From positions 1 to 64,000 of the forward strand of contig JAAILG010000178.1 in NCBI GenBank assembly GCA_012026655.1: a DNA stretch of 64,000 bases, written 5' to 3'. The DNA is from Hydrolagus affinis (taxonomy: Eukaryota). The notes below the pieces were generated by a model, which saw nothing but the letters and a program-made list of their open reading frames with translations, had not been told where the DNA came from and did not search any database. A program made the translations under genes and the position numbers. Below, piece after piece: positions 35,201-62,382 of this stretch; the stretch's first letter is position 1; the number at the start of each line of letters is the position of its first letter.

Positions 35201-37099
35201 GCCTTATTCATTTTGGCATTGAGCCACACGTATAAAATAGCCAAGATTATATTACAACACAATATAATTGACACTTATACAGCACCTTTCACGTTGGCTG
35301 GATGTCACAAAACGTTTCATAGTACTGCCTGGGCACCCAAGCCGGAGAGGGGGGGATATATGATCAACACACTTTTTATTTAAAATCTAAAGTCGCTATT
35401 AAACTGGCAATTCTCATCTAGCAAAGATGTGATACTCATCTGCTGCTACTCAACTACCATTCACAAATATGGTTCTGTAAACTTTGTGGCAACGGGCAAA
35501 CCACAAGTATACTAGAACATCAGTCAGTTGATTAGACAGCAAGCTAGAATATGGAAGTGAGAGATTACAGGGGAGAAAACAGGAAACCCAAATGAAATTC
35601 TTCTGGTTCCAAACGCAGCGACGTATAAGTTTCTAATAAGAAAACAAGAGTGAGTTTGAATTTGCTAACTTTCTAAACAAAACAGGGCATGAATTTAATG
35701 CACTCGTTATGTTGTGCGTTATTTTCTTCCATTTTCTCCCCTCTCCTGGAGGCACTTGATTGATTTTCTTTCTCCTGGGAGTGTGCTTTCCACAGGCACC
35801 TTTGCCCAAGTGGCCATTGTTCACGTGCGAGTTCTGACAGCGAGTCTTGGCAGGTTACTCGAATTAGCCCATGGGCACCGAGGCTAATTGCATCACCCCT
35901 GGTGCCTGAACCAGCTGAGATCATTTCTAACTGAGCACAAAGCAAGGATCTAACCCGAGCTCAGCTGCTCCCTGAATCAACCCATTCAAGATTAAATGAG
36001 TTCTTATTTTAATAAAATGAAATAAAATAATGTTGTTTTTAACCTGCAAAATTCAGTTTTAGTTTTACAGAATTTGAACACACTTTTTGGGTATATTATG
36101 TACACCATTATATATCGCAAAATCAGCACTTAAAATCTGGTGTGATTTTTATTATTATTATTAAAGTCAATTCAATTTGCAGTATATTCTGCGAAGTGCT
36201 TTGAGATGTCTTGAAGACGTGATAAGGGAGCTATGTCAAATGTAAGGATTATTATTTTTTCATTCTTTCCTGAGAACATGTCTGAGATGGTTTGACAAAC
36301 GCACCCAGTCTCTTGATGCCTGATCCACAAGCTGGACAGTATTAAAGTGCCCAATGCTAAACAGATAGAACATGAGCCGAGGTAACGGAATGCCTATTCA
36401 AGCATATTCAGTTGCTATGTGCAGCAGGTAATGGTCCATTCAAAATTCTTGTCAGGAAGCTGTGGGAAACCTGGACATGCGAAGACTTCCTTACCTTCAC
36501 TGCAGGTGACACAATGAAGAATTGCAAAACAGTATGTGAAAGACCAGAATCATGGATCTACTATCAGTCACCTAAATTGAACGCTAAATTCAATACAAGA
36601 GAATGTGCTGGGGATGAGGTAGAATAGTTCCAGTTGAACAATAATGAGCGGTTCTTTGGCTTTAGTAATGATGAGTGTTTGTTTCTTAACAGCAGTAGAT
36701 CAATGCATACCCTGCATTTTGGATTCTGTTTAGTTTTGTACAGTACTTCACTGTATTGGCTATTTAACTGGCGTTAAAAGAAGTTAAAGGACCAGATTAT
36801 AGTAATAGTTAAAGTTGCCTGAAGGTGACAAAGTCTAGATTGTATCAAGAAGATCCTAAAATGTGTTAATTTACTGTGTGGTTTTGTGTTTTTGCACTTC
36901 GTTCAATTACTGAATTAGTTTTCAACCCAACAGGCTAATTTGCCAAATGGACAAGAGACCGGATGAAAATTTATGCCATTGAACAATGATGTTCATTTTG
37001 ACATAAACTGAATCCAACTGTTGTTTATCCTTTACTTCCTAACTTTAAATAATCCATGAAATTGATGAAGAATTGATGATGGAAACACACTCCTCGCGG

Positions 37100-37330
37100 G
37101 TCTCCCCAGCTGCACTATTCAAAAAGTCCAGCTCATTCAGAACTCCGCAGCCCGCCTACTTACCTGGACCAAATTCCCAACCTCCATCTCACCAGTTCTG
37201 GCCAGGCCCCACTGGCTCCCCATCACTGAACGGATCGATTTCAACATCCTCACACCCGTATTCAAAACATCTCCCTCCCTGGCACCTCCCTACCTCTCCG
37301 ACCTCCTCGCTTCCCAATCCACCAATCCAT
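37100..37330 (+). mobile_element. L2-clade LINE ORF2 fragment
   Basis: Frameshifted QLIQNSAARLLT...HL...VLARPHWLPITERIDFNILT...LAPPYLSDLL motif. Confidence 0.75.
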
Positions 37331-40300
37331 AAACAAATCATATCATTTTGTAAACTTAGTAGGGGGTTCCCTTGCTGTTTACAACACAGCTTGCATCTGC
37401 CCATCAGCAGTAAGTGCAAAGAGCAGTTAATTTTGAAGCACTGCTTTCTTATATATAAAAAATATTAATGGTTGTTGTCTTTTTTGTGAGCTACATTATC
37501 TCATTACAGTCTTTGCTATAAAAGCACTTCACCCCACTTCAAACACAGATTTTATAAAACCTTAAAATGGTTTTGCAATGTGCAATAATGACATGGTTGA
37601 GCATTTCAAATTGTGTTAAATTTCAGAATGTATTTTAAGGGGTGGAATTTCGCTTTAGGTGGATGATGAATGGCTCATACTTTATTTATGTTTCATAAAG
37701 CAAAAGCTAACAGTAGGAATAGAAATAGTACATCTTTGCAAGGTGTAAGCCAGTCCAACACATTTTCCTTCAAGCACATGCAGTTCCACAAAGTTTAAGA
37801 TAAGATGAAACTGCACATGTAATTAGTTATTTTCGTATGATCAAACAGCACTTTGTGTATAACACTTGTAAATGTTGTCTTGAAGATTAGAGTTAAAGTT
37901 GGAGATGCCATGAAACAGTTACTGCTTTAAAACTCACCAGTTGTTCAGTGGAACCTTTTGGCAGAAGTTCAGTTTAATATGTTTATATGATAAGTGGCAA
38001 GAGAGTCAAGGATACTTTACACTGATGTAAACAGATATCGAGCTCGTCAGTGTATTCGGGCTGAAAAGAATGTGCTATGAAGCAGCTTTAATGGATCTTC
38101 CTGCTTTGAAACAAGAATAAGGCAAGTGCTTTTTTATTTTTGGGGTCTGAGTTTATGAATTTACAAGTTTTCTATTCTAAGAGAAACACCTTTGGTTTGA
38201 CTGGATCTAGTCACTAATTGTTTTTAAAGCCATCCAGTGTTATTCAGGGGAAAAGTTTCCATTGTTTGTTCAACTTCAGTATTTGGTTCTTAATTGGCAG
38301 CCACCACATTTTATTTATACATTGGTCCTATCTAGGTTAGCGATAATGGATTGAAGTGAATATTCAAAACTAAATATTAATTGCGGTTGATCTAAAACGT
38401 TGCTCACCATTTATGGTTAATATTTTTGCATGTCTGGTTTTTAGTTGCTGCTCCCAGACTCCCAGCTCACTCGAGACCACCCGTTTGAAATGAACAGCAC
38501 TGTGTTTTGTCAGTGCTTCCCTTTTATTGATACCGTATCTAGACTTGCAATAGAGATCTAATATCTGCATTTTCAGAGGAATTGGAACAAGGGCGGAGAA
38601 GTGAGCAATATCCATAAAAGTGTATGAAATTGCCATGAACCACTATATTAAGTCTGCAATTACTTTGAGGGGAAACATGAGTGAATTAGTAGTGAAGAGC
38701 AGCTAAAGCTCTGAGGAGGAAACAGACTTTCGAGGATAAAGGGCTGAAGCGACAAATATTCCCAAAAGTTCCCTACAATGAAATCCAGTTCACAGTTTTC
38801 AGCAAAATATCAGAAATTGTATACACATGTACTAAAAATGTGCATATATAATGCATTTTTTTTTACAGAATTCAGTTAATGTATGAAAGCAATTATTCAA
38901 TATTTGGCATAAAGGGCCAGACACAATTGGTACAATAAAGACTGTGGACATAAATGAGCCCTTCATGACGGGAAGGAAAAATAATTACTTTTGCGATTGT
39001 TGAGGTCGATAAAATTATCAAACCATAGAAAAACTAGCTCATGCAATAACGGCATACACAACATGTTTTCTATGGGAAAGCTGAGCGAGAAGGCAGAAAA
39101 AAACATGAAGCTTGGGGAGAACTGTATGCTTGGCAAAGTTTTAGATAAACACTGCAGTAGAATGTATCTTATTTTGATTGTATAAACACCAATCATTTCT
39201 GTTGTATTGAGAACACATTTATTTTCTATCCAAACATGTGTACCAAAAATAGGAAGCTATGTGCAGGTTTCATTGATTGGAGGATGGAATGAGATGAGAA
39301 GAGATGATTTGCAAACTTATACCAGAATATGTTTGCATGAGATTTGGTCACAAAATAACAATTCAGATTTTTTCAATATATACTTGCAGTAGGGGTTATA
39401 TGCTTTGTTATATACTTGCAGCAGGGGTTTTCTGACTGATGTCTAGTACTGTATTCAAAAGATCTTCTACAGTTTCCAAGTGCACCTTGGACATCCCTCA
39501 AGTCCCAGATCTATTCATAAAAACGCATGGAAAATTTTCTGTAGTCAAACACGACTAAGTGATTTGCAAATTCCTCCATTTGGAAAAGGCAAAGTTGCAG
39601 GAATTGTAAGGTTTGTGGACCAATTTCTATAGCGCTCGAACCAGCAAATTGGAATTGCAGAACTGCGTCAGCAAATAGTTCTTGCAAATTAAACAAACCC
39701 TTATACTGCATTTTCTGTGGCAATACAAGTACAGGGTGAGCAAAAAGACATCAAAACAATTTAATGTCGAATAGTTTTTAAAGGAATTTTTTTTAGATAC
39801 AGTAATTAGTTTGATGAAAAAATCAAGACTTTTTGGTCACCCTGCATTGGGACATCTTCCCAACATGAAAGGCGCTATACAAATATAATTTTGTTGTTGT
39901 TGTTGTTGTTGTATTAAGCCCAAGCTAATCACACTATTCCCATGCTCTTGAGATCAGTATGAGGAACCGTTTGATTGTTGTTGTAGGATAACTGTAATAG
40001 GTGTAAACCAAGTCCTCAACAGTTCATCAAAGAATCTTGGATGGTTTGATGCACGACCTAGAATAATTCAGGGCCTTAAATACTACATTTAAGAGGTGAA
40101 TAGTCGTTGAAGATTACTCAGAAGTAGAAACATATTGTTTGAGTTCTTATTACTGTGGATGCCACTTTAGATTGTTTTCTTGGAAGAGTTTGAAATAGTA
40201 ACTATGTATTCAAAGTCAAATGATAAGAACAAAGAGTTTGTAATTTGTTCATGAAACAGAGAAAGAGCGACCTTTACAGCTTCTTTTAGCTGAACCTTTA

Positions 40301-43300
40301 ATGCTTATCTCAAGTGGCACAATGCCAATCTTTGGGATTCTGTTTCCTTACCAGCTGAGAGTATAATTCAATGACATTTTGGTTTTACAGAATCTCTGGC
40401 AACTGAACGCAGAGAAGGTTGGAATTCCACCAAAGTGTTTTCGAAACAAGCCTAATTTGCTGGAGATTATGAGAAGCTACCCACGCTCATGATGAACAAC
40501 AGGTAAGGAGAGGGATAGGGGGGTGGGGGGGAGGGGGGTGGGAGTATTGGCAGTCAAACTACCATCCTGTTTGTATAGAGCGGATATAGTACTTAATAAA
40601 GATGGGAATACATTTAAACTCCCTGCCTCTCTCTCTCTCTATGATCTTTTGTTGAACTTAGGTCAAACTATTTTTACTTTTGAATATTATTATTCAACTT
40701 GAGTGCTTATCTCAGGGTTTGTTGAATCACTGTGAACTACAGACTATTCCTGCACAATTCAGAGGGAACTTGTACATATCACAACACACAAAACATTACT
40801 TTTAGTTTTGCCAATTAAAAAAAACATTAAAAAATGTACGGCAACACATTTTGCTCCCTAATCGTGGCTGATGTGTTGATTTTAGTTGCATTTCCATCTC
40901 TGGGGAAAGTAAATTCCCTTTACATAAACGAACAAACAATTTGACAGAAGGATCTTAAAGTTCTGGGGTCTGTGGTAGGTTAGCAACACTACTTACTGGT
41001 TTTACAAATTGAAAACCAGAAGAAGCTAACAATACGCTGATTTGGTATGTTGAACCTTTGGTTAAACCCACTATTCAATCATACTTTCAGGGCTAAAAGA
41101 TTTTCCAAGAAACACTTTCAAACCATTGTAGCAGCGTCTGTTAATCCACTTTTGCAACCATCTCCCTGATTTTATAAGGTATAAATAAGCAGAGAAAACT
41201 TCTACTCTTTCGCAAAGTTGATGCTCATGTGTTTTCTGGTCCATGTCCAACCAACCCTTTAGTCTAAAATGTGTTGTACTTCAGTTTTATTTTCCTGGGA
41301 AAGGATTTGTGAGAGACAGTGGCCAACCAAAACACTTCACTATTCTAAAGTTTGCCTTTTAAAGAATAAGCAGCAACATTGATTCAAATTGTTCATCTTT
41401 ATTAGGCATTGATGCAGCCTGACTGAAGTTTATAATTGGCATTGACTTTTCACAAATACCTTTCATGTGGTCATGAATGTTTAGCGCACGAAGAGTTCAT
41501 GTGCAAACTATTTTAACCTTTTCATTGCCAAACACAGCTCTTTTGCACAACATCTTCAAACGTAACTTCTGTAATTTTTATAAGCAATGGTAAAATACAG
41601 TCAGTAGTCAGAAGGAAGGATGGAAATGCTTGGAAAGATAAGAGTCTGACATCAGTAAATGTGATGCTCATCTCAAACAATAATACAGTAGATTGCAAAT
41701 GCTACATATACAACCATTCTGGTAGTTCTTGTTTCAAAGTGATTTAATCTGCAAATAGATTGCCCTGAAACTTAGACTGTCCAGTGCCTTGGGATGTCCT
41801 CCCAACGTGAAAGGTGCGATACAAATCTAATGTTGTTGTTGTTTACCAAACGCTAGTTAATATAGAAAATATGGAAATATAAAATATATTTTTTTAAATA
41901 GAAAATTATAGAAAATAATTGTACATTCACACAGTTGTGCCCTAAAGAAGTTGTTTATTTAACATTTCAAATTATTTAACATTCATTGCAAAAACATTTT
42001 TTCCATTAGTGGCAATAAGGTGGATTTGTTTGGTGCATCAAGTATAATGCAGTAAACAAATGACTGATGGTACTTTCTGTAAGGCTGTTAATGTTGTGAG
42101 CGTGCATTGGAATTCAGTGTTGTACTATGCAAGTATGCAGGCAAAAATAAGAAAATGTTTGGGGCTGATTAGATTCATGCCTCAAAGGAAATTTGCCAGC
42201 ATGATTTCTGATGTGCCAATCCTATGAGGGCAAATGATTTGAGAAAGCCCAGCATCTGAGAAAGCAAAAAGATAAAGAGAATGAGAATCCAGGCAATTAC
42301 TGGACTGACTGAATCGGATGATTTCATATCATTATTTGTCATCCTGAATTAAACATTAGCTTCAGAGTAATAAATGTTGGTAACTGTGACTGTAATTCTG
42401 CCATGAGGACAAAATTAGAAATAATAGTTGAATACTTCCCACACTCCTTCACTTTTCTGTTTATATTACTGTATCTGCTTTTGAATAAAACCCATTTAAT
42501 CACTCCTGAATTGCTTACAAATACACAGTCACCACATTTGATAGTGAGTCCCTGTGTAGCAGATTTAAATGTTTAATGTTAAAGGCGCTATATCAAAGGC
42601 CAAGATTTTTTTCCCTCCCCCTAAATTGTTCAAGATTCAAGCCTTTCATTTACTTTACTTTGATTTCCTCCATTGCTGCTCAAACCAAGTCAAGTTTAAA
42701 ACATCGGAAGTCAAGGGATAAGATGTTAAAAGTGGACGGAAAGAGGGAAAAAGAAAATTGCCAGTTGAATGAGAAGGTGATTAAAGGTTTAACTCTTAAC
42801 CTCAAATTGGTTTTCACTTTTATATACTGTATTTACTTTCCTAATCGGCAAGCAATTCACAACAAAGAGCAATGTTTGTTTGCACTTATTTGTTCAATTT
42901 AGGTGAAAATGTGCAAAGTGTAAATGTGACATTTATGTTTATTTTGATAGTGGAAAGAATCACCTGGTAACTAAATTGTGCTACAAAATTGCCGAGATGA
43001 TATTCTGCGAGATCATGTTGAAAGTGTATGCAATACACTGTTTAAATAACTGAAGATCTCTCTCTATCAGCTAGCCAGTCATCACCAGTCAGCAGTCTGG
43101 CTTATTGGGGACATATGTTCAATATTGCAGTGACTTCACCACCCTGATACTTTAACCCCACTGAGAAGGATTCAATCTTTTATACAGTGCAATTGCTGTT
43201 GGCTGGACACCAAGTGTCAGGTGTAGGAAAGAATGCTCTGGTATTGTAAATAATTTACACAGTGATATCACATTAAATCCTACCGACTTTCCAGGGTAGA

Positions 43301-46050: not shown

Positions 46051-46281
46051 GCTTGGATAAATACTGATAGAGATTGTGTATTGTGTGTAGAATGGACAAG
46101 GATCATGGACAGAATTGAAGTTCTCTGAGGCCTTCATCCTTTGAGAACAATGTTTCAGTGCAAGTTGGTGTTCTTATTGAATGCCGTTTTCTAGATTCTT
46201 ACTCTCTTATTTTCTTGTTGGATCAGACACTGTATGGCAGTGAACATTTAGACACTACAAAGACCTTTGAACATTTCACCG

Positions 46282-46317
46282 ATGCATACAGAGAAATCAA
46301 CAGAGCAAAGTAATCAG
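46282..46317 (+). CDS. Putative first coding segment of the NRAC-like gene (MHTEKSTEQSNQ), within exon ~46227-46317
   Basis: Pyrimidine-rich acceptor ttttcttgttggatcag| at 46226 and consensus donor CAG|gtaagt at 46317, phase 0. Start codon is uncertain (see finding). Confidence 0.45.
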
Positions 46318-47084: not shown

Positions 47085-47394
47085 GGGAGTCCTGCAGCTC
47101 AGTGGTGAGAGCACTCATATGCAAGAGACCTGGGTTCAATGCCAGGCAGGGTGAAACCTTGGGTGAGTTTTCTTACTCCACACACCAAATAATAATCCAT
47201 CAAAAAAAACACAATAATAAATTGGTTATTGCAATACATGACTGTTTGTGGGACACCACTGTGTGCAATTGGCTGCCGCATTTCACCCACATATATATAC
47301 ACGGGCAATTCACTTTACAGTATATTCTGTGAATCGCTTAGAGACGCCGAGAAGACGTGAAAAGTGTGATATGAAATGCAAGGATTATTATTAT
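47085..47394 (+). mobile_element. Near-full-length tRNA-derived SINE (dominant family of the window)
   Basis: Head GGGAGTCCTGCAGCTCAGTGGT (A box) ... GGGTTCAATGCC (B box). Body has a Deu-like ctgtttgtgggacac..tgtgcaattggctgccgc segment. Tail gcaaggattattattat. Confidence 0.85.
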
Positions 47395-47414
47395 ACAGCT
47401 GTACTCTATCTCAG

Positions 47415-47540
47415 GATTCTGCAGCTGATCAGCCACTGGAAGTTTCGAATAAGATTTTACCACAGTGGCTTGGAAATGATCCAGTTGCCAGAGTTCAGAA
47501 AACACATACGTTCTCTGCAGAAACGTGCAACACACAGGAG
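47415..47540 (+). CDS. Putative NRAC-like exon (DSAADQPLEVSNKILPQWLGNDPVARVQKTHTFSAETCNTQE)
   Basis: Acceptor ctgtactctatctcag|, donor GAG|gtactt, 126 nt, open, phase 0-0, frame-compatible with neighbouring exons. No recognisable homology. Confidence 0.5.
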
Positions 47541-49000: not shown

Positions 49001-49142
49001 CAGGCAATTGGACTAAAATGGCCAATCTCTATTCTGAGGACAAGGTCGAGCGGAACATTGTATGAAGGGAACTGTACATCTCTCAAGAGGAGATCACAAA
49101 GGAGGGTTCATTTTCGAGAATCAGATGAGATAATTTTGCCCA
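49001..49142 (+). CDS. C14orf180: C14orf180/NRAC-like internal exon (QAIGLKWPISILRTRSSGTLYEGNCTSLKRRSQRRVHFRESDEIILP)
   Basis: Acceptor gttttgaaacccag| (tandem CAGCAG), strong donor A|gtaagt, open frame, phase 0-1. KWPISILR...RRVHFRE resembles recalled human NRAC KCPPSILK...RRVWFRE. Position convergent with TMEM179 fits human 14q32.33 order. Confidence 0.8.
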
Positions 49143-49724
49143 GTAAGTTTTGATACTTTATTACATCATTGATACATTTGGTTAGAGGGTTTGGATTAAA
49201 ATATAACAAAAATCTGAATTTATTCCAGTTGAAGAATGTAGCTGTTATAATAAATTCGTCTTCATGATGTGCCCAGTGAGTTGATTTCTAAACAAAGTAT
49301 TATTCTAAACTCATACAAACCAGTAGTCAAGTGTAACAAGTGTTACTATCTTTCAACATGTTTTTTTTTAAGCTGCATGCATTTGCATCGGTAGAATCTT
49401 CCCATTGCAGTATTTTTAAATCCCTATTGAAAACCTGATCACATTAGCTGTTCATCTTTTAGACAATACCTGCTTGACTATTAAACTGGTCTGTTTCAAG
49501 CGCTTCGAGACGCAGTCTGGCATGAAGGGTGCTTTATAAATGCAAGTTGTTGTTGTTGTTCTCCTTGCTGTTGTATTCTCAATGCTAAAGAGATAGCACC
49601 ACGAATCTTGAAAATTTCAAGATCTCATTGCCAGGATTAAGGGGCATGTTTGTCCTGTGTGTTGGTTGGTGGAACAATGGGATCCAGTAAGCAAAAATAA
49701 TAGCAAGAAAAGATTGCTTACACA

Positions 49725-49950
49725 AGTCAATCAGCGGATTGCTTTTCTGGGGGTAATAATTCCTATTGCAAAAAAAGTCACTCAATCCACGACTGTTTGG
49801 GCGACACTGCTATGCACAATTGGCTGCCATGTTTTGCCCACAAAATATGCAGTCAGTTCATTTTACAGTATATTCTGTGAAGAGCTTTGAGAAATCTTGA
49901 AGATGCCATAAGGCTCCATATTAAATGCAAGGATTATTATTATTATCATC
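49725..49950 (+). mobile_element. 5'-truncated SINE
   Basis: ctgtttgggcgacactgctatgcacaattggctgcc...aaatgcaaggattattattatc. Confidence 0.85.
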
Positions 49951-52104
49951 ATCATCATTCACAGCCCCTGTAGAGGGGGTGTGGGCAATATCTTAACACA
50001 AAGGATAACATTCTGTAACCCGATCAAACTAAATGCTGTAGTGTCTGTGGATGTAAAGAAAAATCTCAGGGAATATAGCTCTTTATGCTTATTCACAAGA
50101 AGGAATCGCTTCATAGCGCTAATCTTAGTTTGATTATACTACACGAAAAATTCTAAATGGTGCAGAATTACAGTCCATTAAATAAATTAAATTCTTTCAA
50201 ATGAAATGGAGAGGAAAGAAGTTCCATCGTAATTACAGTCTTCAGAAACATCCTTCAGTGAGTGGCTTCACTGGTTTAGAAGTTGATTTTCATTTGAAAC
50301 AGCATCCTAGTATGGTAATCCCAAACCAATTTGCTCCAAAATTGTTACAAGGTGGCGAGAAATTTCACCACATTAGGTAGATTGTGAAATATGGGGTCAG
50401 AATATACAATCACTAAACAATGGTAAAAAAAAACAACTAATTCATAAGAAATCACCTACAAATGTTGTACAGAAATAGCTAAGTAAATAACTAAAGGGCA
50501 GTTCAAGGGAGGAAAAAAATCATTTGGGATGTTTCAGTCAACTGTTCATTGCAATCATTTGTGCTATGAGAATGTTAAGACTCATTTCAAGTCCCCAGCT
50601 GTGTTAGTGCCCATCTCAGGCCTCTTTTCAATCTAATTTTTCACACTCCCCTGGTGTGAGCCCAAGCCAGGGTAAGTGGAAACCTATCCAAACACTCATT
50701 TCTCAACCTTGCTTCCAAGGTATTGAATCGGCCGAATTCTAACTTCTTGTTGCACATGAAAGTAATGAGAATATAGATTTGTTTTGAATTCTAATAAAAA
50801 TTCTAATGGCACAACAGACAAAGGGTGAGCATTTCTGAAGTGAAGGAAGGGTGGGAGGGGAAAGATGGGTGATGTGTAGTCTGGGAAAATGATACTCAAA
50901 TGTTAGAATAAAGAAACATTTCTGTTGTGAGATAACATTTAGAGGGATATAGTATTTGGATTATTGATTTTAATTTAGTATTTACTGTTCCACGGGGGAA
51001 ATTTCTACAAATTAATCTATTTCTTGATCCCAAGGGGAGCATAATTCTTACCTCGTCATTTTATTTTCCCATTATTTCTCTCGCTCTCTCTCTCTTGAAA
51101 GGCTTTCTGATGCAGGCCCCTGATACATTAATCTATCTGCCTGGTCAACTCAATACCATTCAGCAGTTATTTTTGTGTCTGTAACTGTGTCCGTGACTCC
51201 ACAATACTTAAAAAAAAACCTCACTATTATTATGGGAGCCAGTCCAGATGGCCCGCAGCTAACATCAGAGCCAATAATCACAGCAAACTCAACAGTGTCT
51301 GCACAGTGTCATTATGCATGCAAAACAAACTGCTGAACAGCGCACTTAATTTTCTCTCTGCTCCCCAGAATTGCTCTGATAGCTGCATTTTGCTGGACTA
51401 CATTTCCTTTTTTGGTTCCAGCTGAATTATATTTATGTACTGGTGCATTTTAAACCAGCTCAATGCTTCTTACAAAGATTTTTTTGTTCATCTTCGCACT
51501 CAATTCCTCATTGCTGCAGTTAGGCGAAATGTAGCACTACATCAGTTTAAAAATGATTTGGAAACACCAGCCTGTCATTCAGTAGGGCCAGCTCAAGCCA
51601 AAATTGTAATTAAACCAGTTTACAAAATGCAGTATCTTTTTCAGCACATTGATTAATCTACATTTGTTTTGCATTTTTCTCCAGTAGCTGCTAAAAACAC
51701 GGCCATTAAACATTTTCTGCAGGATTTACAGTCAAATGACGGCAAGGTAGTGCTTACAATTTGTCCATTTAAAATATCAATTTGGAAATTCACTCTCGAA
51801 TTCAGCAAGAATTAGTGCAGTGCAATCCAATATAACACCTTTCACACAAGAAGGGTATTTCAAATTGCCTGACAAGTCCTGAATTTGGGGTGTGAGCCAG
51901 TGGCGGTTGTGGTGGGGAGGTTGGATGGTGGGGGGGGCTTTAAAAGCACAGTCAAACAGGTATGTTTTGAGACCTTGAATGGTGGGTGGGGGGAGAGAGG
52001 CCATTTAAGATCATCAAACCTATTCATCAGAGTGATAAAGAGCTCCCAAAAATGAATAATTCTCGCATTTGACCCCTAAAAGCATGTTAAAAAAAAGGTG
52101 CAAA

Positions 52105-52340
52105 TGTAGTGATTGTGTATCTATAGGCAAATAAGGCAGCCAATTTGAACACAGCAATGCCCCACTTAAGTGACAAAGTGAGTGATCAATTTAATCTGGG
52201 GTTGGTTGGTCAGGTTAGCAGGAAGAATACTTTATTTCAATAATTCTATGGGACCATTAATGTCCACAGGCCAACAGGCCAACAGAACTTCATTTTGTCT
52301 CACCCCCAGCACAACACTGGAGAATTAGCCTGGGCTATGT
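52105..52340 (-). mobile_element. Degenerate DeuSINE fragment
   Basis: ggcagccaatttgaacacagcaatgcccc...ctatgggacc...tgtccac...cactggagaattagcctgg. Confidence 0.55.
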
Positions 52341-52959
52341 AAAGGAAAGATTAACAAGCCCTTCATTGATTACAGCATTTCATTTGGAGTTCTTTAGCTT
52401 TTTATTCCCATTCCCCAACTTTCTCTTCACATAATGCTCTGCTTGGCCTGGAGAAGGCACTAGCTCAGTTACTGACCTGTGATTCCACACTTCCAGGGTC
52501 TGCTTTCCTTGCCAGTCCTCACTTCTGACACCATGATACCACTTTGTTTCTTACATTGTTTTTAAGGCTCCCAAGTCCACTCGTCCAAATCAAATGTAGT
52601 GAATCTGTTTGAAACTCCAGCTCATGAGTAGTCAAGGTATAGCCAGCAAATCTTCCAAATTTCCCTGCAGTCCACTCCAAACTGGTTCACCTCAATAGAA
52701 ATAGTGACTCTATTAAGGGATGATCTACAAATTCCCCAATTTATAAGGCTTGCAAAATCACCAGGGGGTTATCCCCAAATCTTTAAAGGACATTTCTCCA
52801 TAAAGAGTGGAGAGTAAGGATTGACACCTATTCACCTCAGATCATTATCCCTAGAAGGTTGGTTAGACAGTGACAAGAGTCATTGGATTGCGGTACAATG
52901 GTCTTTAGTTTCTATGGGTTAATATGAAACACCCTCTGAAATGGCCTAACAAGCTACTC

Positions 52960-53205
52960 TCGAGAGAAGATGACTAGGATGAAAATCTCATAGATGGGTA
53001 CAAGCTTTTAAATGAGATTGAAAAAGTAAAACCAGATCAATACTTTAGGATGTATCAAGACAGTAGAATAAAGGGACATGGGTTTCAAATTGTAAAGGGT
53101 AATCTCAACACAGCCAGAATTTGTCTTACACACAGGGTAATCAACATCTACATGGTTGTCAAGAATGATGGTAGAGGCCAGGACACTGGACTCATTGATA
53201 CATTC
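52960..53205 (+). mobile_element. CR1-clade LINE fragment
   Basis: Degenerate gagaagatgactagg..atctcatagatgggtacaag...KGHGFQIVKG...FxTHRVINI motifs. A weaker similar fragment lies at ~33230-33500. Confidence 0.65.
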
Positions 53206-54068
53206 TTATATTCTATTTTATACTTTTTTTAAAAAAAAGGGCAGGAAGATTATTTCTAAAACAAAACGAAAACACAGCTTCCTTCACCGAATGGCAGGAG
53301 AGATTTCGAACAAGCATGGACAGAGTAGAACTAGACTCTAGTGGTAATGTAAGGTAAAGGTAGTTCTGTTTAGGACATCCTTTGACATTAAACAACAAAT
53401 ATATTGCATCCCATAAGTGTTGCTTAAAAGGAGCTGTACTAAATACTTAATTCGGACTGCTGCATTGAACAGATGCTGTGAAAATGATTATAATATATCT
53501 TTCAAATTCCAATCCTGGATGAATCACTCTGAAAAGCAGGATAATTCATCACATTGCTGCCCTATTCCAGACAGCTCAGCATTTTTGTATTGAGACTACA
53601 CGTAGCAGGGATATATATGTGCATATAATGTGCAATTTTTAAGTTTTTGAATCCAATTTAACTTTTAATTAGTTGCTGAGTACTTTGCAATAGTTTGGTC
53701 ACAATGCATTCGAGGGAGAGGGAGAAGGGCAACTGAGAGAAGAGTCTCCAGTGGCCAGCTTAGCCTGAAACAAGGAAGGAAAAGCTAATTCACAAAAGAT
53801 GGCCATTCAATTGAAGTCTTGACCAAACAATCAATCTGCTTGTGCAGTCAAGAAAGAAGGCTAGCATGGTTCCACAAACAGTTTAGAATATGTTTTATCA
53901 GTTGTGCATTTTTATTTAATTTTGAAGAAGACCGCGGTATTTTATAGACTTCTTTCATATGGCAAGAGCGCTGATTAGCAACGCTCAAATAACCAAGTCC
54001 AGATTAGTGAGTAATATTAATATTTAGAATGTAATTTAATTTTTTGTCACATTGTTGTATTTTTTCAG

Positions 54069-54268
54069 CTCATGAACACTATTCCCCAGCACCATCACCA
54101 TTGCAGCTTTTTGCGTTCATTGTTTTGCTGAGCCTGCTGATTGTGTTACTCTATTGCAATAAGTGTCCCTCTAAGGTCTGTGAACAACTTGGGTCGAAAC
54201 TTCTTAGCTTCTATCTGGACATCAAGCACATTGCAATCAGATGCTGGCACCGATGGATGAAAAAGTAA
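54069..54268 (+). CDS. C14orf180: C14orf180/NRAC-like terminal exon with TM helix (HEHYSPAPSPLQLFAFIVLLSLLIVLLYCNKCPSKVCEQLGSKLLSFYLDIKHIAIRCWHRWMKK*)
   Basis: Acceptor ttgttgtattttttcag| in phase 1, compatible with the 49142 donor (A|CT = Thr). Hydrophobic stretch plus LYC and ..LL....L.H.A..CW pattern as in recalled human NRAC C-terminus. TAA ends at 54268. Confidence 0.8.
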
Positions 54269-54459
54269 GACATCCGCAAACACTGGGAGCATCAAAACAC
54301 AGCTTGGTTTGGACACTCCCTTTCAGCGGAGCAATCTTGGCTGAATGATGTTACAAAGGCAAGCTGTTCAACATCACTTAGCCACAGTCGGTGGTGGTTA
54401 GAAACAATTGGTTGAACACAAGACAAAATGACAATGAACCTTCTGAATTTGCTGTCATG

Positions 54460-54925
54460 ACCCCATCTCCCACATTCCCACCCAACTCCATTGGCTCCCA
54501 TCACCCAGAGCATTCAATTCAAGATCCTGGTCCTCAATTTCAAAGTCCTCCTCGGCCTCGCCCCACCCTTCCTTTGCGACCTCCTAACCTGCCTGCCCCC
54601 TCCGCTCAACAGGCTCTGGCCTGCTGCACTTCCCCCAAACCACCCACCCCACCACTGGCAGGCAAGCCTTCAGCCACTCTGCCCCCAACCTCTGGAACTC
54701 CATTCTCCGGTCCCGATGCCTCACCCCTTCCCTGGCCTCCTTCAAGTGCCGCCTCAAGCCCCTCCTCTTCGACGGTCCCATCGGTCACACCAAATCCCCC
54801 CCCTTTCCTTCCACCCTCTTCGTCCCCGACCCCAACTGGGGTTTGAAACAGTGACTGTCCAGCGCCTTGGGACGTCCTCCTGATGTAAAAGGTGCTGTAC
54901 AAGTGTCATTTTGTTGTTGTTGTTG
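54460..54925 (+). mobile_element. L2-clade LINE 3' fragment
   Basis: Frameshifted ORF2 C-terminal motif LHWLP-ITQSIQFKILVLNFKVLLGLAPPFLCDLL, then a 3' tail cagcgccttgggacgtcctcc..aaaaggtgct..(GTT)n. Confidence 0.85.
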
Positions 54926-56447
54926 GTTCAATTTTCCTCTGCAATGTTTTTGAAACCTCGGACTTCATTCTGTTTTTATTTTAAGATGGCATTGTCAACA
55001 AAATGTTTATTTCAAATATTGTGAAATTTAGCTACTGGCTCAACTGAAGATCCACTAACAGTGAAGGTTGCAATCCAACTCCCATCTCTTGGGAGTCACC
55101 AACATCAGAACCTAATCAATCCAATTGTTGGAAATGTTTACCTGAATGAAGATGTATTATTGCCCTACACAAAGCATGGTACCTTCCATTCCCAGATCCT
55201 ATTTAATTCGACCCCTCCCACGCTTTACACAATATCTTTGTCCCAATGCCTTGGATAATCAGTTAATTACTGGTCCATTGCCTAAGGAGTATGGAAACAC
55301 TGCAAATACTACAATGTGAATCAGACATGCATGGATAGCCTGATTAGAATCAATTGGTTTTAGAAATAGTTTTTGATTCCTATTTTACTCTGGTCAGCAG
55401 GGCATCAGACACAAGCATAAGGGACATCATCACCATTATTAAGGTATCCAAATCAGACAAGAGTTCCACAAATGTATCCCACTTACACACGGAGATTTCC
55501 CTGTGTCTGGAATGGGCACTCTTTCCCTTCAGGGATGCCCTGCTTACCTAATTCCAGAGAGTATTAGGTGTCGGGTGGCAAGAATCAAGGCCTGTGGTGC
55601 GGCTGGAGATAACTAGCTACGACTGTGCTGCTTGCCATTGAAAACATTGTCGGCACGTTTCCTGCTGCATGTCCATCCATTAGAGCTTTAGCTTGCAGGG
55701 TAAACATACACTAAACGAAGAAAGTTTGCCTCCAGAAATTCCCATGTTACGGCACAAATCGTCTCTCAGTGTGACATCGATTTATAATCTACACATGTTA
55801 GGATTCACAGCTGACTTGAGACATTTTCTTGGAGACCATTGTGAATCGTGTGATCTGTGATGAGTAGCTGCACTGCAGTAAGATATTCTTGAAGCAAGCC
55901 AACTCTGAAAAAAGTGTACATGAATCTGACAGCAGTATTTCCACCAGCCTGTTTGACTGTAACATTTCTGGAAGCCACATGCTGTCTGCCTAGGAGTATT
56001 GTAATGCTATGTTAATGCTATTTGATCTATGCCCCTTATGTCCTGGTTTAAGGTAGATGTTAGTATAATCAGTAAAAAAAACTGAATTCGTTGAAAATAT
56101 GGGATTCAGTTTTGTACTATCGACCTCAGTAGATTAGTTTTCTCACCGGATAATTGTTTTATGGAAGACTTTCTTTGCTGAAGTTGATGGGTTCAAAGAG
56201 AATATAGATTACAGGCAGTAATTGTTGAATGGCAGGTATGGGATTGAATGCAATAAAAAGGCCAAATTAATTGTAAATCCAACATTCCTGCAATTTCCCC
56301 ACACTAGTGGTCTTTCACAGTATTAACTGTTATATTAATGGCAGAATTCTTGATGACGCTTAACACCTAAATTGATAAAATTCTGCAGTTAAGAAGCAAT
56401 CTAGTGTAACCTTTCCATTAATCTACTGTCGCATTTCAGCTACTTGT

Positions 56448-58590: not shown

Positions 58591-58806
<216 letters not shown>

Positions 58807-59583
58807 TTAAAAGCAAACTTTGACAACAACAACTTGCATTTCTATAGGGCAAAGGGCGGGAGGGGTAATCTGACCGAATGTGCAGCTAAAAACAAGATAA
58901 ACCTTGTTTTGTTTATAGAAGTAAATAATTTGAATGCAGCCTGGATATTGATTGTTAATGTCAAATTCTGCAAACTCAACAGGGGCAAAAGCATAGAATG
59001 AAACTACTCAATTGCTTTATTTTAGACAATCCACTCATTTGTTTTTCACAGTCAAAACAACAAAAAAGAGGAAATCTACCATTGTCACAGTTAATATATT
59101 TGGTTTATCAAAAACATTGTCTACATAAGAAACTTTTATACAACACCATTTTTTTAAAAGAAAAACTGTCCAAGAATATAATATTTGTGAATTTTCTATC
59201 ACTATACATGGTCGTCTAAACTGAGTGCTCATTGAATGAAGCAATATTTGATTTACAAGCAGCATATTTCTGACAGTGAATCCATTTACAATGATCCTTT
59301 ATTGGGAAGAGTTTCGAGAGACATTGTGCTAATGGCATTTCAATAATTTATCATTGGATTCAATGATAATTGGATTGAACATTTGAATTCCATGGCAAAA
59401 AAAGCTCCGGTAAATGTGCAATGGGCAGGAAGTTATGTCAGTGACAACCTACTGACCTGGAAGTCAAACACAGGAAATCAACCAGTTTTCAAAGTCGATG
59501 CACAAACAGCTGTCAATAGGGCCCTATTATAATGCAGATTACAATTTCTTGGACCTCAAAGGGTTCTACTGTAGTTAGAAAAC

Positions 59584-59930
59584 ATAATAATAATATTTCT
59601 TTCATTTGATATAGTGTCTTATCATGTGTTCGAGATGTCTCAAAAGTGCTTCATTAAGATATAGGATAAAGTGAATTGACTGTCTATTTTGTGGGCAAAA
59701 CGCGACAGCTAATTGTCTACAAGCAGTCATGAATTGAATGACCAATTTTCTTGGAAGAAATTATTACCCCCGAAAAAGCGAACCGCCAATCGACTGACAA
59801 CCAGGTTCCTACTTACTACTAGGTAAACAGAGGCATCTGGAGTAAGAAAACTTGACCTACATTTCACCCTGCCGGGAATCAAACCCAGGTCCCTTGTTTA
59901 TCTCCCGCAAGATAAGTGCTCCAGCCACTC
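59584..59930 (-). mobile_element. Near-full-length tRNA-derived SINE in TMEM179 intron 3
   Basis: Reverse complement of the same family: (TAA)n tail on the left, cctacttactactaggtaaacagaggca centre, gggaatcaaacccagg B box. Confidence 0.85.
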
Positions 59931-60215
59931 CAAAAACTTCGATTTATATAGTGCCCTCCATGCTGGACAGCGTCTCAGAGCGCTTCACTAAGCTACAGGA
60001 CTCCACAATATAGGGTGATAACCAACACAACAACAAACAAAATTATAGAGGGCCTTTCATGTCGGGAGGATGTCCTAAGGTGCTGAAACACCATGTGCAA
60101 TCTAAATTATTCTGTCTAACCAATTCGGTCAGCTGATGCGCTTTGAGACATTCTTCCAATGTCAAACAGCACTTTTATACACTTCACTATATCTTTACTA
60201 TATATCCTGTTGTCA

Positions 60216-60930
<715 letters not shown>

Positions 60931-61010
60931 TTATTCTTCTCACTTTTATTTACTCCTGTAGCACTTTTCATGTGTTAGGTGCTTGGATTTGCCGTTGATA
61001 AGTTTTTCTA

Positions 61011-61301
<291 letters not shown>

Positions 61302-61514
61302 TCAGAGATACAGCTCAGTCTGCATAGGACTGGAGCCAGTGAGCATTCTCCGCCCACACACAGCAGAGGGAGAGAGAGACGCAATAAAGCCCTGAGGAAC
61401 ATTACACTGTCCGTCCATGGCTTTATTTACAAAAGCAACGCCAACACTGACTGACTGTGATCACAAAACTCAGACCTTTCCTATGGGTGGGATTTGATTT
61501 TAACCCTCCATCTC

Positions 61515-61800
61515 TTGTGCAATCGGCTGCCGCGTTTCGCCCGCAAAATAAGACAGCCAATTAATTCCCTTTGCGGGGTGTTCCGCGAAGCGCTTTGAGA
61601 CGTCTAGACGACGCGAAGAGCGCTATAATACTACTCCTGTTAATAATAATAATCCTTACGTTTGATGTGGCGCTTTTTCACGTCTTCTAGACGTCTCAAA
61701 GCGCTTCACGGATCGCGCCGCACAGAGAATCGAACGTAAATTTCCGGGTGAAACGCGGCAGCCCATCCATCGCGCACGGCCGCGGATTGAAATGAACACG
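61515..61800. mobile_element. Inverted tail-to-tail pair of CpG-rich SINE 3' fragments in TMEM179 intron 1
   Basis: Perfect 22-bp inverted repeat 61587-61608 / 61686-61707 and 14-bp inverted repeat 61525-61538 / 61750-61763. Confidence 0.85.
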
Positions 61801-62080
61801 TGTATTATTCCCCCAACAAACAACAACAACAACCCTCGCCTTTGACACAGCGGTGTGACAATCCAAAATGCAAGGAATCCTCCTGATTATTGCCAGCACC
61901 ACCACCACCAATCACAACAGGAAACAACAACAAGATGGACATCAGCTTGCATTGACAAAGCAGCGTCCTCCCCCCACCCCCACCTCCCCATCCCATCTCC
62001 TCACCACCCCCTCCCCACACCCCACCCACCCCTCTCTCTCCTCTCCGTGGCTGGCTGGGTGGGTGGCCTTGACTACCTAC

Positions 62081-62382
62081 TCGTCGTGACCTTTGCAGAG
62101 GTAGAAGAGGAGCCTCCAGGCCTGGATGGCCGACAGGACCAGGGCCAAGAGGACGACGAAACTGGTGAAGCCGCAGGAGGAGGTGGGTCCCCACTCCTCC
62201 ACCACGAAGCGTTGCCTCTCTATCGTGGCGTTCACGTCCTGCCACATGCCGCGGGTGAAGAGCGGGCATCTCCCCTGGAACTGCCGACCGTTCTCCCACA
62301 GCGGCACCACCACCACCAAACCAGACAGGAAAGCCAGGAAATACAGCAGGCACTGGACCCACACCACATTGTTCAGCCCCAT
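62081..62382 (-). CDS. TMEM179: TMEM179 coding exon 1 (MGLNNVVWVQCLLYFLAFL...WRLLFYLCKGHD)
   Basis: ATG at 62382 in a strong Kozak context (accaccATGG). Translation resembles human TMEM179 N-terminus (MALNNFLFAQC..VVVVPLSENG..GRCLLFTEGMW..EWGP..LCKGH). Donor GA|gtaggt, 302 nt, phase 2. Confidence 0.95.

Follow-up and report, generated by a model that had tools for sequence, protein, structure and literature searches.

The window analysed here is a 64,000-nucleotide (nt) stretch of the Hydrolagus affinis genome (positions 1 to 64,000 of contig JAAILG010000178.1, forward strand; the contig is called C178 below). Between 49001 and 54268 it holds the final two exons, A and B, of a gene that reaches upstream to at least 47415, where an exon is open, and to 38035 in broken exons. 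We conclude with good confidence that this gene is NRAC (C14orf180), that NRAC is paralogous to consortin (CNST) but shortened, the pair likely stemming from an early vertebrate whole-genome duplication (WGD), and that the NRAC product is a predicted membrane-anchored, PP1-docking escort for membrane cargo. The gene itself is known, but the partly decayed form seen in the window is new and reveals the apparently unreported paralogy of NRAC and CNST. Its last two exons are the following.

49001 to 49142, + strand: exon A, 142 nt, phase 0 to 1, with a SILK-type motif (SILR) and an RVxF motif (RRVHF); DUF4658 match, E 0.033.
54069 to 54268, + strand: exon B, 200 nt, with a transmembrane segment, LYC, SKVC, a C-terminal helix and the stop codon; DUF4658 match, E 0.003.

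The acceptor of exon A is an AG, repeated three bases downstream, and the donor is the GT at 49143; the frame of exon A is open and breaks after the first base of a codon (phase 1). Exon B resumes in that phase and encodes a hydrophobic stretch, LYC and SKVC before a TAA stop, which confirms the preliminary description, where SILR and RRVHF, a phase-1 intron and then a transmembrane segment had been read. That description had also remarked on a retained S.VC cysteine past the transmembrane segment. The SKVC of exon B bears this out, and the cysteine was absent from all three of the other, non-human NRAC C-termini compared. The search for a phase-1 micro-exon between the two exons yielded a weak 12-nt candidate alone, which was rejected; NRAC relatives have no insert there. 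The nearest AATAAA downstream of the stop is at 56252.

The family assignment came from Pfam, a protein search and a tree. When the exons were scanned apart, DUF4658 (PF15555) was the sole Pfam match of each, at 14.8 bits for exon A and 18.2 bits for exon B, below the cut-off of 27. A HMMER search with exon B against 1.84 billion representative proteins gave four matches at E of 0.001 or less. P0106 (390 aa, shark) and P0107 (158 aa), both named NRAC homolog, were among the top three, and the third NRAC-type match was P0108, an uncharacterised Mustelus protein; the fourth, P0109, was set aside as noise, being repetitive and carrying unrelated Pfam matches. Exon A is 54% identical to P0106 (tblastn). 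A C-terminal tree of 19 rows, made of 15 of 105 CNST sequences hand-picked for spread, P0106 to P0108 and the window gene (P0110 was omitted as an isoform of P0107), set the four NRAC rows apart from the 15 CNST rows with support of 100/99. A separate, true CNST is present in the same genome on C20005 (106 bits), with further exons on C3958, C25002 and C33378, and its last exon is 97 to 99% identical to CNST of Callorhinchus milii. The best Pfam family, the clade and a TMEM179-family neighbour are common to the window gene and NRAC/C14orf180, and the assignment to NRAC rather than CNST, as first proposed, is supported by these comparisons. Word-indexed homolog searches retained none of 33 candidates for exon B and none of 4 for exon A, and the Atlas gave no usable match for exon B. 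A genome-wide PF15555 search did not recover the window exons; its two weak matches lay elsewhere (E 5.9 and 6.7), and it neither shows nor excludes a second copy.

Homology to consortin was examined first at the C-terminus. The spliced window peptide scored 20.4 bits (P 2e-8) against a hidden Markov model (HMM) built from 105 CNST C-termini, and this score was reached by none of 5000 shuffles, whether full, segment-wise or with SILR and RRVHF held in place (maximum with the motifs fixed, 19.9). Shuffling of the part after the transmembrane segment only gave 1 in 5000. Among 1699 window frames scored with a CNST-only HMM, exons A and B came first and second. P0106 and P0107 scored 29.5 and 31.2 bits against the CNST HMM, each unmatched by 2000 motif-fixed shuffles. 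The profile-profile match that the preliminary description had called for was obtained with hhalign, in which four NRAC rows aligned to the 105 CNST rows over 90 columns with 97.2% probability (E 4.7e-11 for a single comparison). Consortin_C (PF15281) approached its cut-off of 30 in three NRAC proteins (24.7 to 29.8 bits; P0106 26.3, P0107 29.8), DUF4658 scored 28.4 bits in P0106 and 64.2 in P0107 (cut-off 27), and the SILK exon of CNST had DUF4658 as its second family (E 0.078). CNST and the window gene have in common the layout of SILK, RVxF, transmembrane segment, LYC and S.VC, although the window C-terminus is far more diverged.

The second line of homology lies in the N-terminal half. P0106 contains Consortin_N (PF22883; 29.8 bits, cut-off 27.7) together with DUF4658, and it aligned to the N-domain of shark CNST with 33% identity over 80 residues (BLASTP, E 3e-6). 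The top three Atlas feature matches of P0106 were consortin clusters (0.90 to 0.91). The Atlas also has a Chordata cluster (70 members, 343 aa) with Consortin_N in 96%, Consortin_C in 59% and DUF4658 in its name; with a score of 0.77 it is a lead only. Nothing informative came from a structure search with the Atlas model of P0106 (predicted local distance difference test score 0.45). P0106 was collinear with six window segments, its matches falling at 38076, 40375, 46224, 47394, 48971 and 54059 (the first and third weak by themselves); no window exons were found by tblastn to match its residues 1 to 120. The exons and other elements upstream of exon A are as follows.

38035 to 38121, + strand: broken remnant of the Consortin_N exon, 87 nt, phase 1 to 1; weak tblastn match to P0106, length and phases those of the CNST exon.
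40391 to 40502, + strand: broken exon, 112 nt, phase 1 to 2, in-frame TAA at 40453 to 40455; tblastn match to P0106 residues 143 to 184, E 7e-4.
43215 to 43245, + strand: predicted candidate exon, 31 nt, phase 2 to 0, weak acceptor; ECSG in common with P0106.
46227 to 46317, + strand: broken exon, 91 nt, phase 0 to 1, TAA at 46311 to 46313; weak tblastn match to P0106 residues 195 to 222, E 0.1.
47086 to 47395, + strand: short interspersed nuclear element (SINE)-like repeat, stopping where P0106 similarity resumes (47394); blastn gave 15 rows within the window, the repeat's own among them.
47415 to 47540, + strand: open exon, 126 nt, phase 0 to 0; 47% identity to P0106 residues 229 to 281, E 4e-9.

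We then compared exon lengths and phases with CNST within the Hydrolagus affinis genome, as had been suggested at the outset, and found that they match. The window exons are 87 (phase 1 to 1), 112 (1 to 2), 91 (0 to 1), 126 (0 to 0), 142 (0 to 1) and 200 nt, and those of CNST are 87 (1 to 1), 112 (1 to 2), 94 (0 to 1), 920 (1 to 0), 130 (0 to 1) and 206 nt. The spacer exons (126 versus 920 nt) agree at their 3' end only, in phase 0. The donor lies nine codons and one nt past the RVxF motif in both genes, and the acceptor precedes SILK by eight codons in CNST and by nine in the window gene, or eight with the second AG. At the DNA level, the similarity of the SILK exon pair was above all but 2 of 2000 random windows, and the 87-nt remnant, with 47 of 88 positions identical to the CNST exon, exceeded all 2000. 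On this evidence NRAC and CNST almost certainly share ancestry in two separate domains and along one chain of exons, and the open exon at 47415 to 47540 is evidently the shrunken equivalent of the 920-nt exon of CNST.

Relative to P0106, which has an intact Consortin_N half-domain and an open frame, three of the corresponding window exons are broken. The remnant at 38035 to 38121 carries two mutually offsetting frameshifts, a TAA at 38118 to 38120 where CNST encodes Trp, and a GC donor. In a second data set (run X1, possibly not independent), which was compared over 37900 to 40620 and differed by 29 substitutions in 2721 bases, this remnant and that at 40391 to 40502 showed no difference and the same lesions, and their lesions are therefore unlikely to be assembly errors. 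With about two differences expected, their absence is no significant signal of constraint. The exon that follows the SINE-like repeat was likely cut off by it from its original phase-1 beginning. Open frame runs through the last three exons (468 nt, 155 codons), in which splice sites, the SILK-type and RVxF motifs and the stop codon are all kept. Two ATGs at 40489 to 40494, after the stop in the 112-nt exon, form a candidate new start. The model predicted from the ATG at 40489 uses the weak 31-nt exon, which outscored every other AG to GT candidate of phase 2 to 0 in its intron (15, the runner-up having 8), skips the exon at 46227 and encodes about 170 residues. An ATG-led candidate exon at 42723 to 42776 was rejected, having no support from relatives. 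The product is predicted to be about 155 to 170 residues long, and the excerpted text of PMC3459823 gives 160 aa for human and 165 aa for mouse NRAC. Compared with the other NRAC genes, this one differs in retaining recognisable broken consortin-type exons as well as the cysteine after the transmembrane segment.

The lesions raise the question of whether the paralogy is real but the whole gene is a decaying pseudogene that makes no protein in Hydrolagus affinis. Three upstream exons have stops or frameshifts, and the three open exons contain no ATG until their last few codons, so that the start hinges on the weak predicted exon. However, the lesions are all upstream of the last three exons, the open exons are 42 to 54% identical to P0106 versus 32 to 40% for the remnants, and Mustelus P0108 starts near the position of the candidate ATG. 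We consider a pseudogene unlikely and regard NRAC as very probably live in this species.

With the SILK and RVxF motifs taken in their usual definitions, a SILK-type and an RVxF motif precede the transmembrane segment in 105 of 105 CNST rows (the rows being cut at the SILK motif), in 4 of 4 NRAC rows and in the window gene. It is likely from these motifs that NRAC binds PP1, and we infer that NRAC and CNST share, as their core, a membrane-spanning escort that keeps PP1 docked at the membrane. In the proposed mechanism, the transmembrane helix of NRAC would bind a partner membrane protein (published for CD36 in mouse adipocytes), while PP1, docked on the cytosolic SILK/RVxF pair, would be kept beside the membrane and dephosphorylate the cargo or its endocytic machinery. 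NRAC would in this way govern the surface residence of cargo rather than Golgi exit. According to published work, NRAC is located at the plasma membrane (PMC3459823), its first transmembrane segment binds CD36 and holds it with caveolin-1 in mouse adipocytes (PMC12436663), and CNST acts as a receptor in the trans-Golgi, with connexins and GGA1/2 as its binding partners (PMC9157791, citing del Castillo 2010).

The preliminary description had hinted at a role for NRAC in trans-Golgi or connexin traffic, and the evidence did not bear this out. That NRAC retains the GGA-dependent delivery of connexins from the trans-Golgi is doubtful, despite the conserved transmembrane segment and motifs, the enrichment of NRAC in heart and the Consortin_N retained by long fish forms. 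The DSDLL of mammalian CNST is a DXXLL motif with a role in GGA binding. Of 98 long CNST rows, 40 had it in their spacer, within the part absent from NRAC, and no DxxLL was found in 4 of 4 NRAC rows or in the window product; the Golgi-sorting part of CNST was therefore probably not inherited by NRAC. The published placement of NRAC with CD36 and caveolin-1 at the plasma membrane argues in the same direction, and Consortin_N is dead in the NRAC of Hydrolagus affinis. A motif of the type SLD(D/E)LA(K/R)RI closes the large exon in all eight CNST rows inspected, which range from chimaera to mouse, and is better kept than DSDLL; it was not seen in the NRAC rows.

The genes following NRAC on C178 bear on the origin of the pair. 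Within about 130 kb, the order is NRAC, TMEM179-like, KIF28-like and AHCTF1-like.

58591 to 62382, - strand: TMEM179-family gene of four exons, tail-to-tail with NRAC; recognised from its frames, exon 1 without a Pfam match.
C178 65507 to 91088, - strand: kinesin-3 gene, best PDB match 7WRG.
C178 about 110000 to 126100, - strand: AHCTF1/ELYS-like exons, with an ELYS match (E 2.6e-4, below cut-off) near 124.6 to 126 kb.

We take 7WRG to be KLP-6, of the KIF28 type. An AHCTF1-like exon on C178 is 37% identical to an exon on C1432, where an ELYS match above cut-off is followed by a paralogous kinesin gene (34303 to 66804, + strand) whose exons are in matching order with about 30 to 75% identity. 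AHCTF1 and then KIF28 thus occur in the same order on both contigs. Both KIF28/KLP-6-type kinesin genes are full-length and their matched exons free of stops; human KIF28P is a pseudogene. The AHCTF1-like exons beside NRAC, perhaps with a divergent ELYS-bb match at C21575 5858 to 7246 (- strand, 32.5 bits), are a candidate second AHCTF1 gene. We assume that KIF28P lies between SCCPDH and AHCTF1, and we likewise take the gene orientations and the wider 1q44/14q32 paralogon as given. The duplicated neighbours fit a paralogon, and this is supported. Excerpts of the human literature place TFB2M, CNST, SCCPDH and AHCTF1 in a 1q44 deletion (PMC4061518) and KIF26A, INF2, TMEM179 and C14orf180 in a 14q32.33 peak (PMC6764480). 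The flanks of the window gene were not KIF26B, SMYD3 or TFB2M and the profile match to consortin was significant, either of which could have gone otherwise by the preliminary description. That description also expected KIF26A and INF2 nearby; no FH3-domain match (INF2) was among the 31 matches listed for C178, KIF26A was not searched for, and the contig begins at window base 1. SCCPDH could not be placed, with three weak matches on other contigs.

A WGD origin of the NRAC/CNST pair is very likely, and a duplication older than the split of sharks and bony vertebrates is supported by the tree. The alternative, a segmental or older duplication of the CNST-KIF28-AHCTF1 block outside the two rounds of vertebrate genome duplication (1R/2R), draws on the small number of neighbouring pairs (three, all within about 130 kb), on the want of an outgroup and on the wider 1q44/14q32 paralogon being taken from background knowledge. 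Against it, both clades cover cartilaginous and bony vertebrates, with mammal, lizard and tilapia NRAC in the excerpted text of PMC3459823, and KIF26A lies with C14orf180 and TMEM179 in the human gene lists for 14q32.33, as excerpted. The pairs KIF26A/B, AKT1/3, ADSS1/2, CEP170/B and PLD4/5 would enlarge the duplicated block to megabase scale. We regard an origin outside 1R/2R as improbable.

In the history favoured here, a consortin-like gene would have been duplicated along with KIF28 and AHCTF1 before the split of sharks and bony vertebrates, the large spacer exon of the NRAC copy would have shrunk from about 920 to about 150 nt, and the N-terminal exons would have been lost later in some lineages, here through stops, frameshifts and a SINE. 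The preliminary description had cast NRAC as an N-terminally reduced duplicate of consortin. The paralogy stood, on the domains and the exon chain, but a reduction confined to the N-terminus did not, since the spacer shrank and the N-domain of P0106 is intact. The reduction is evidently internal as well (920 nt to about 126 to 150 nt), and the N-terminal loss is by all indications lineage-specific, the domain being intact in shark P0106 and decayed in Hydrolagus affinis.

Several results weigh against descent of the window gene from a consortin duplicate as set out above. Consortin_N profiles failed to detect the remnant at 38035, and the DNA similarity of the 112-nt, 91-nt and last exon pairs was not above chance (961, 348 and 257 of 2000 random windows). 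The part after the transmembrane segment is weak when scored alone (216 of 5000 shuffles), the 22.1 bits of P0108 were reached by 26 of 2000 motif-fixed shuffles, tblastn with 105 CNST proteins missed exons A and B, and BLASTP of P0106 against CNST gave no C-terminal alignment. The exons alone, unlike CNST, had no Consortin_C match, besides falling below the DUF4658 cut-off. The tree is unrooted, its NRAC branches are long and it includes no outgroup that predates the duplication; no cyclostome or amphioxus sequence was among the 105 CNST and four exon B search matches. The 13.8-kb CNST contig could not be joined in the assembly to KIF28/AHCTF1 on C1432, and the start codon and 31-nt exon of the window gene are predictions. 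Convergence of two unrelated membrane-anchored PP1 interactors on SILK, RVxF and a transmembrane helix can be dismissed as highly improbable: motifs as short as these arise repeatedly and 20.4 bits is a modest C-terminal score, but convergence on PP1 motifs is insufficient given a second shared domain, Consortin_N in P0106, cannot account for the matching 87- and 112-nt exons or the motif-fixed shuffles, and would need a chimeric P0106 model, against which the collinear window remnants argue.

Paralogy of NRAC and CNST is apparently unreported, although the automatic Pfam labels already overlap and the databases hold the link implicitly. In a full-text search outside of which most subscription papers and supplements lay, no paper was found that joins consortin/CNST with C14orf180, C14orf180 with PP1/PPP1CA, or consortin with RVxF. 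Within the text available of them, PMC12436663 and PMC12873920 contain neither 'consortin' nor 'paralog', and PMC3459823 does not contain 'paralog'. With NRAC placed in the consortin family, two orphan families become one. The placement also predicts, in a form open to testing, docking of PP1 through the cytosolic SILK and RVxF motifs of NRAC, and it suggests possible redundancy of Cnst and Nrac in knockouts. The balance tips slightly toward a broader formulation, in which DUF4658/NRAC would be the unrecognised WGD sister of CNST in a hidden KIF28/AHCTF1 block kept by cartilaginous fish, with repeated loss of the N-domain, one instance being caught here as dead exons; if true, control of CD36 fatty-acid uptake by NRAC would act through PP1. 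The locus documents domain loss under way, beside a second AHCTF1/ELYS-like and a KIF28-like gene.

Two minor matters concern the surroundings of NRAC. We take the four-exon neighbour to belong to the TMEM179 family, whose human pair is TMEM179/TMEM179B. Three first exons of this family were found in the genome, in the window, at C66577 1156 to 1449 and at C23588 9088 to 9423 (100%, 52% and 38%), and the third copy is possibly an extra ohnologue. In window positions 1 to 38000 no coding exon was recognised by eye in the long frames, and the sequence is mainly SINE and long interspersed nuclear element (LINE) fragments. C-rich LINE-like fragments at 37049 to 37465 and, directly past the NRAC stop, at 54382 to 54900 give rise to long spurious frames.

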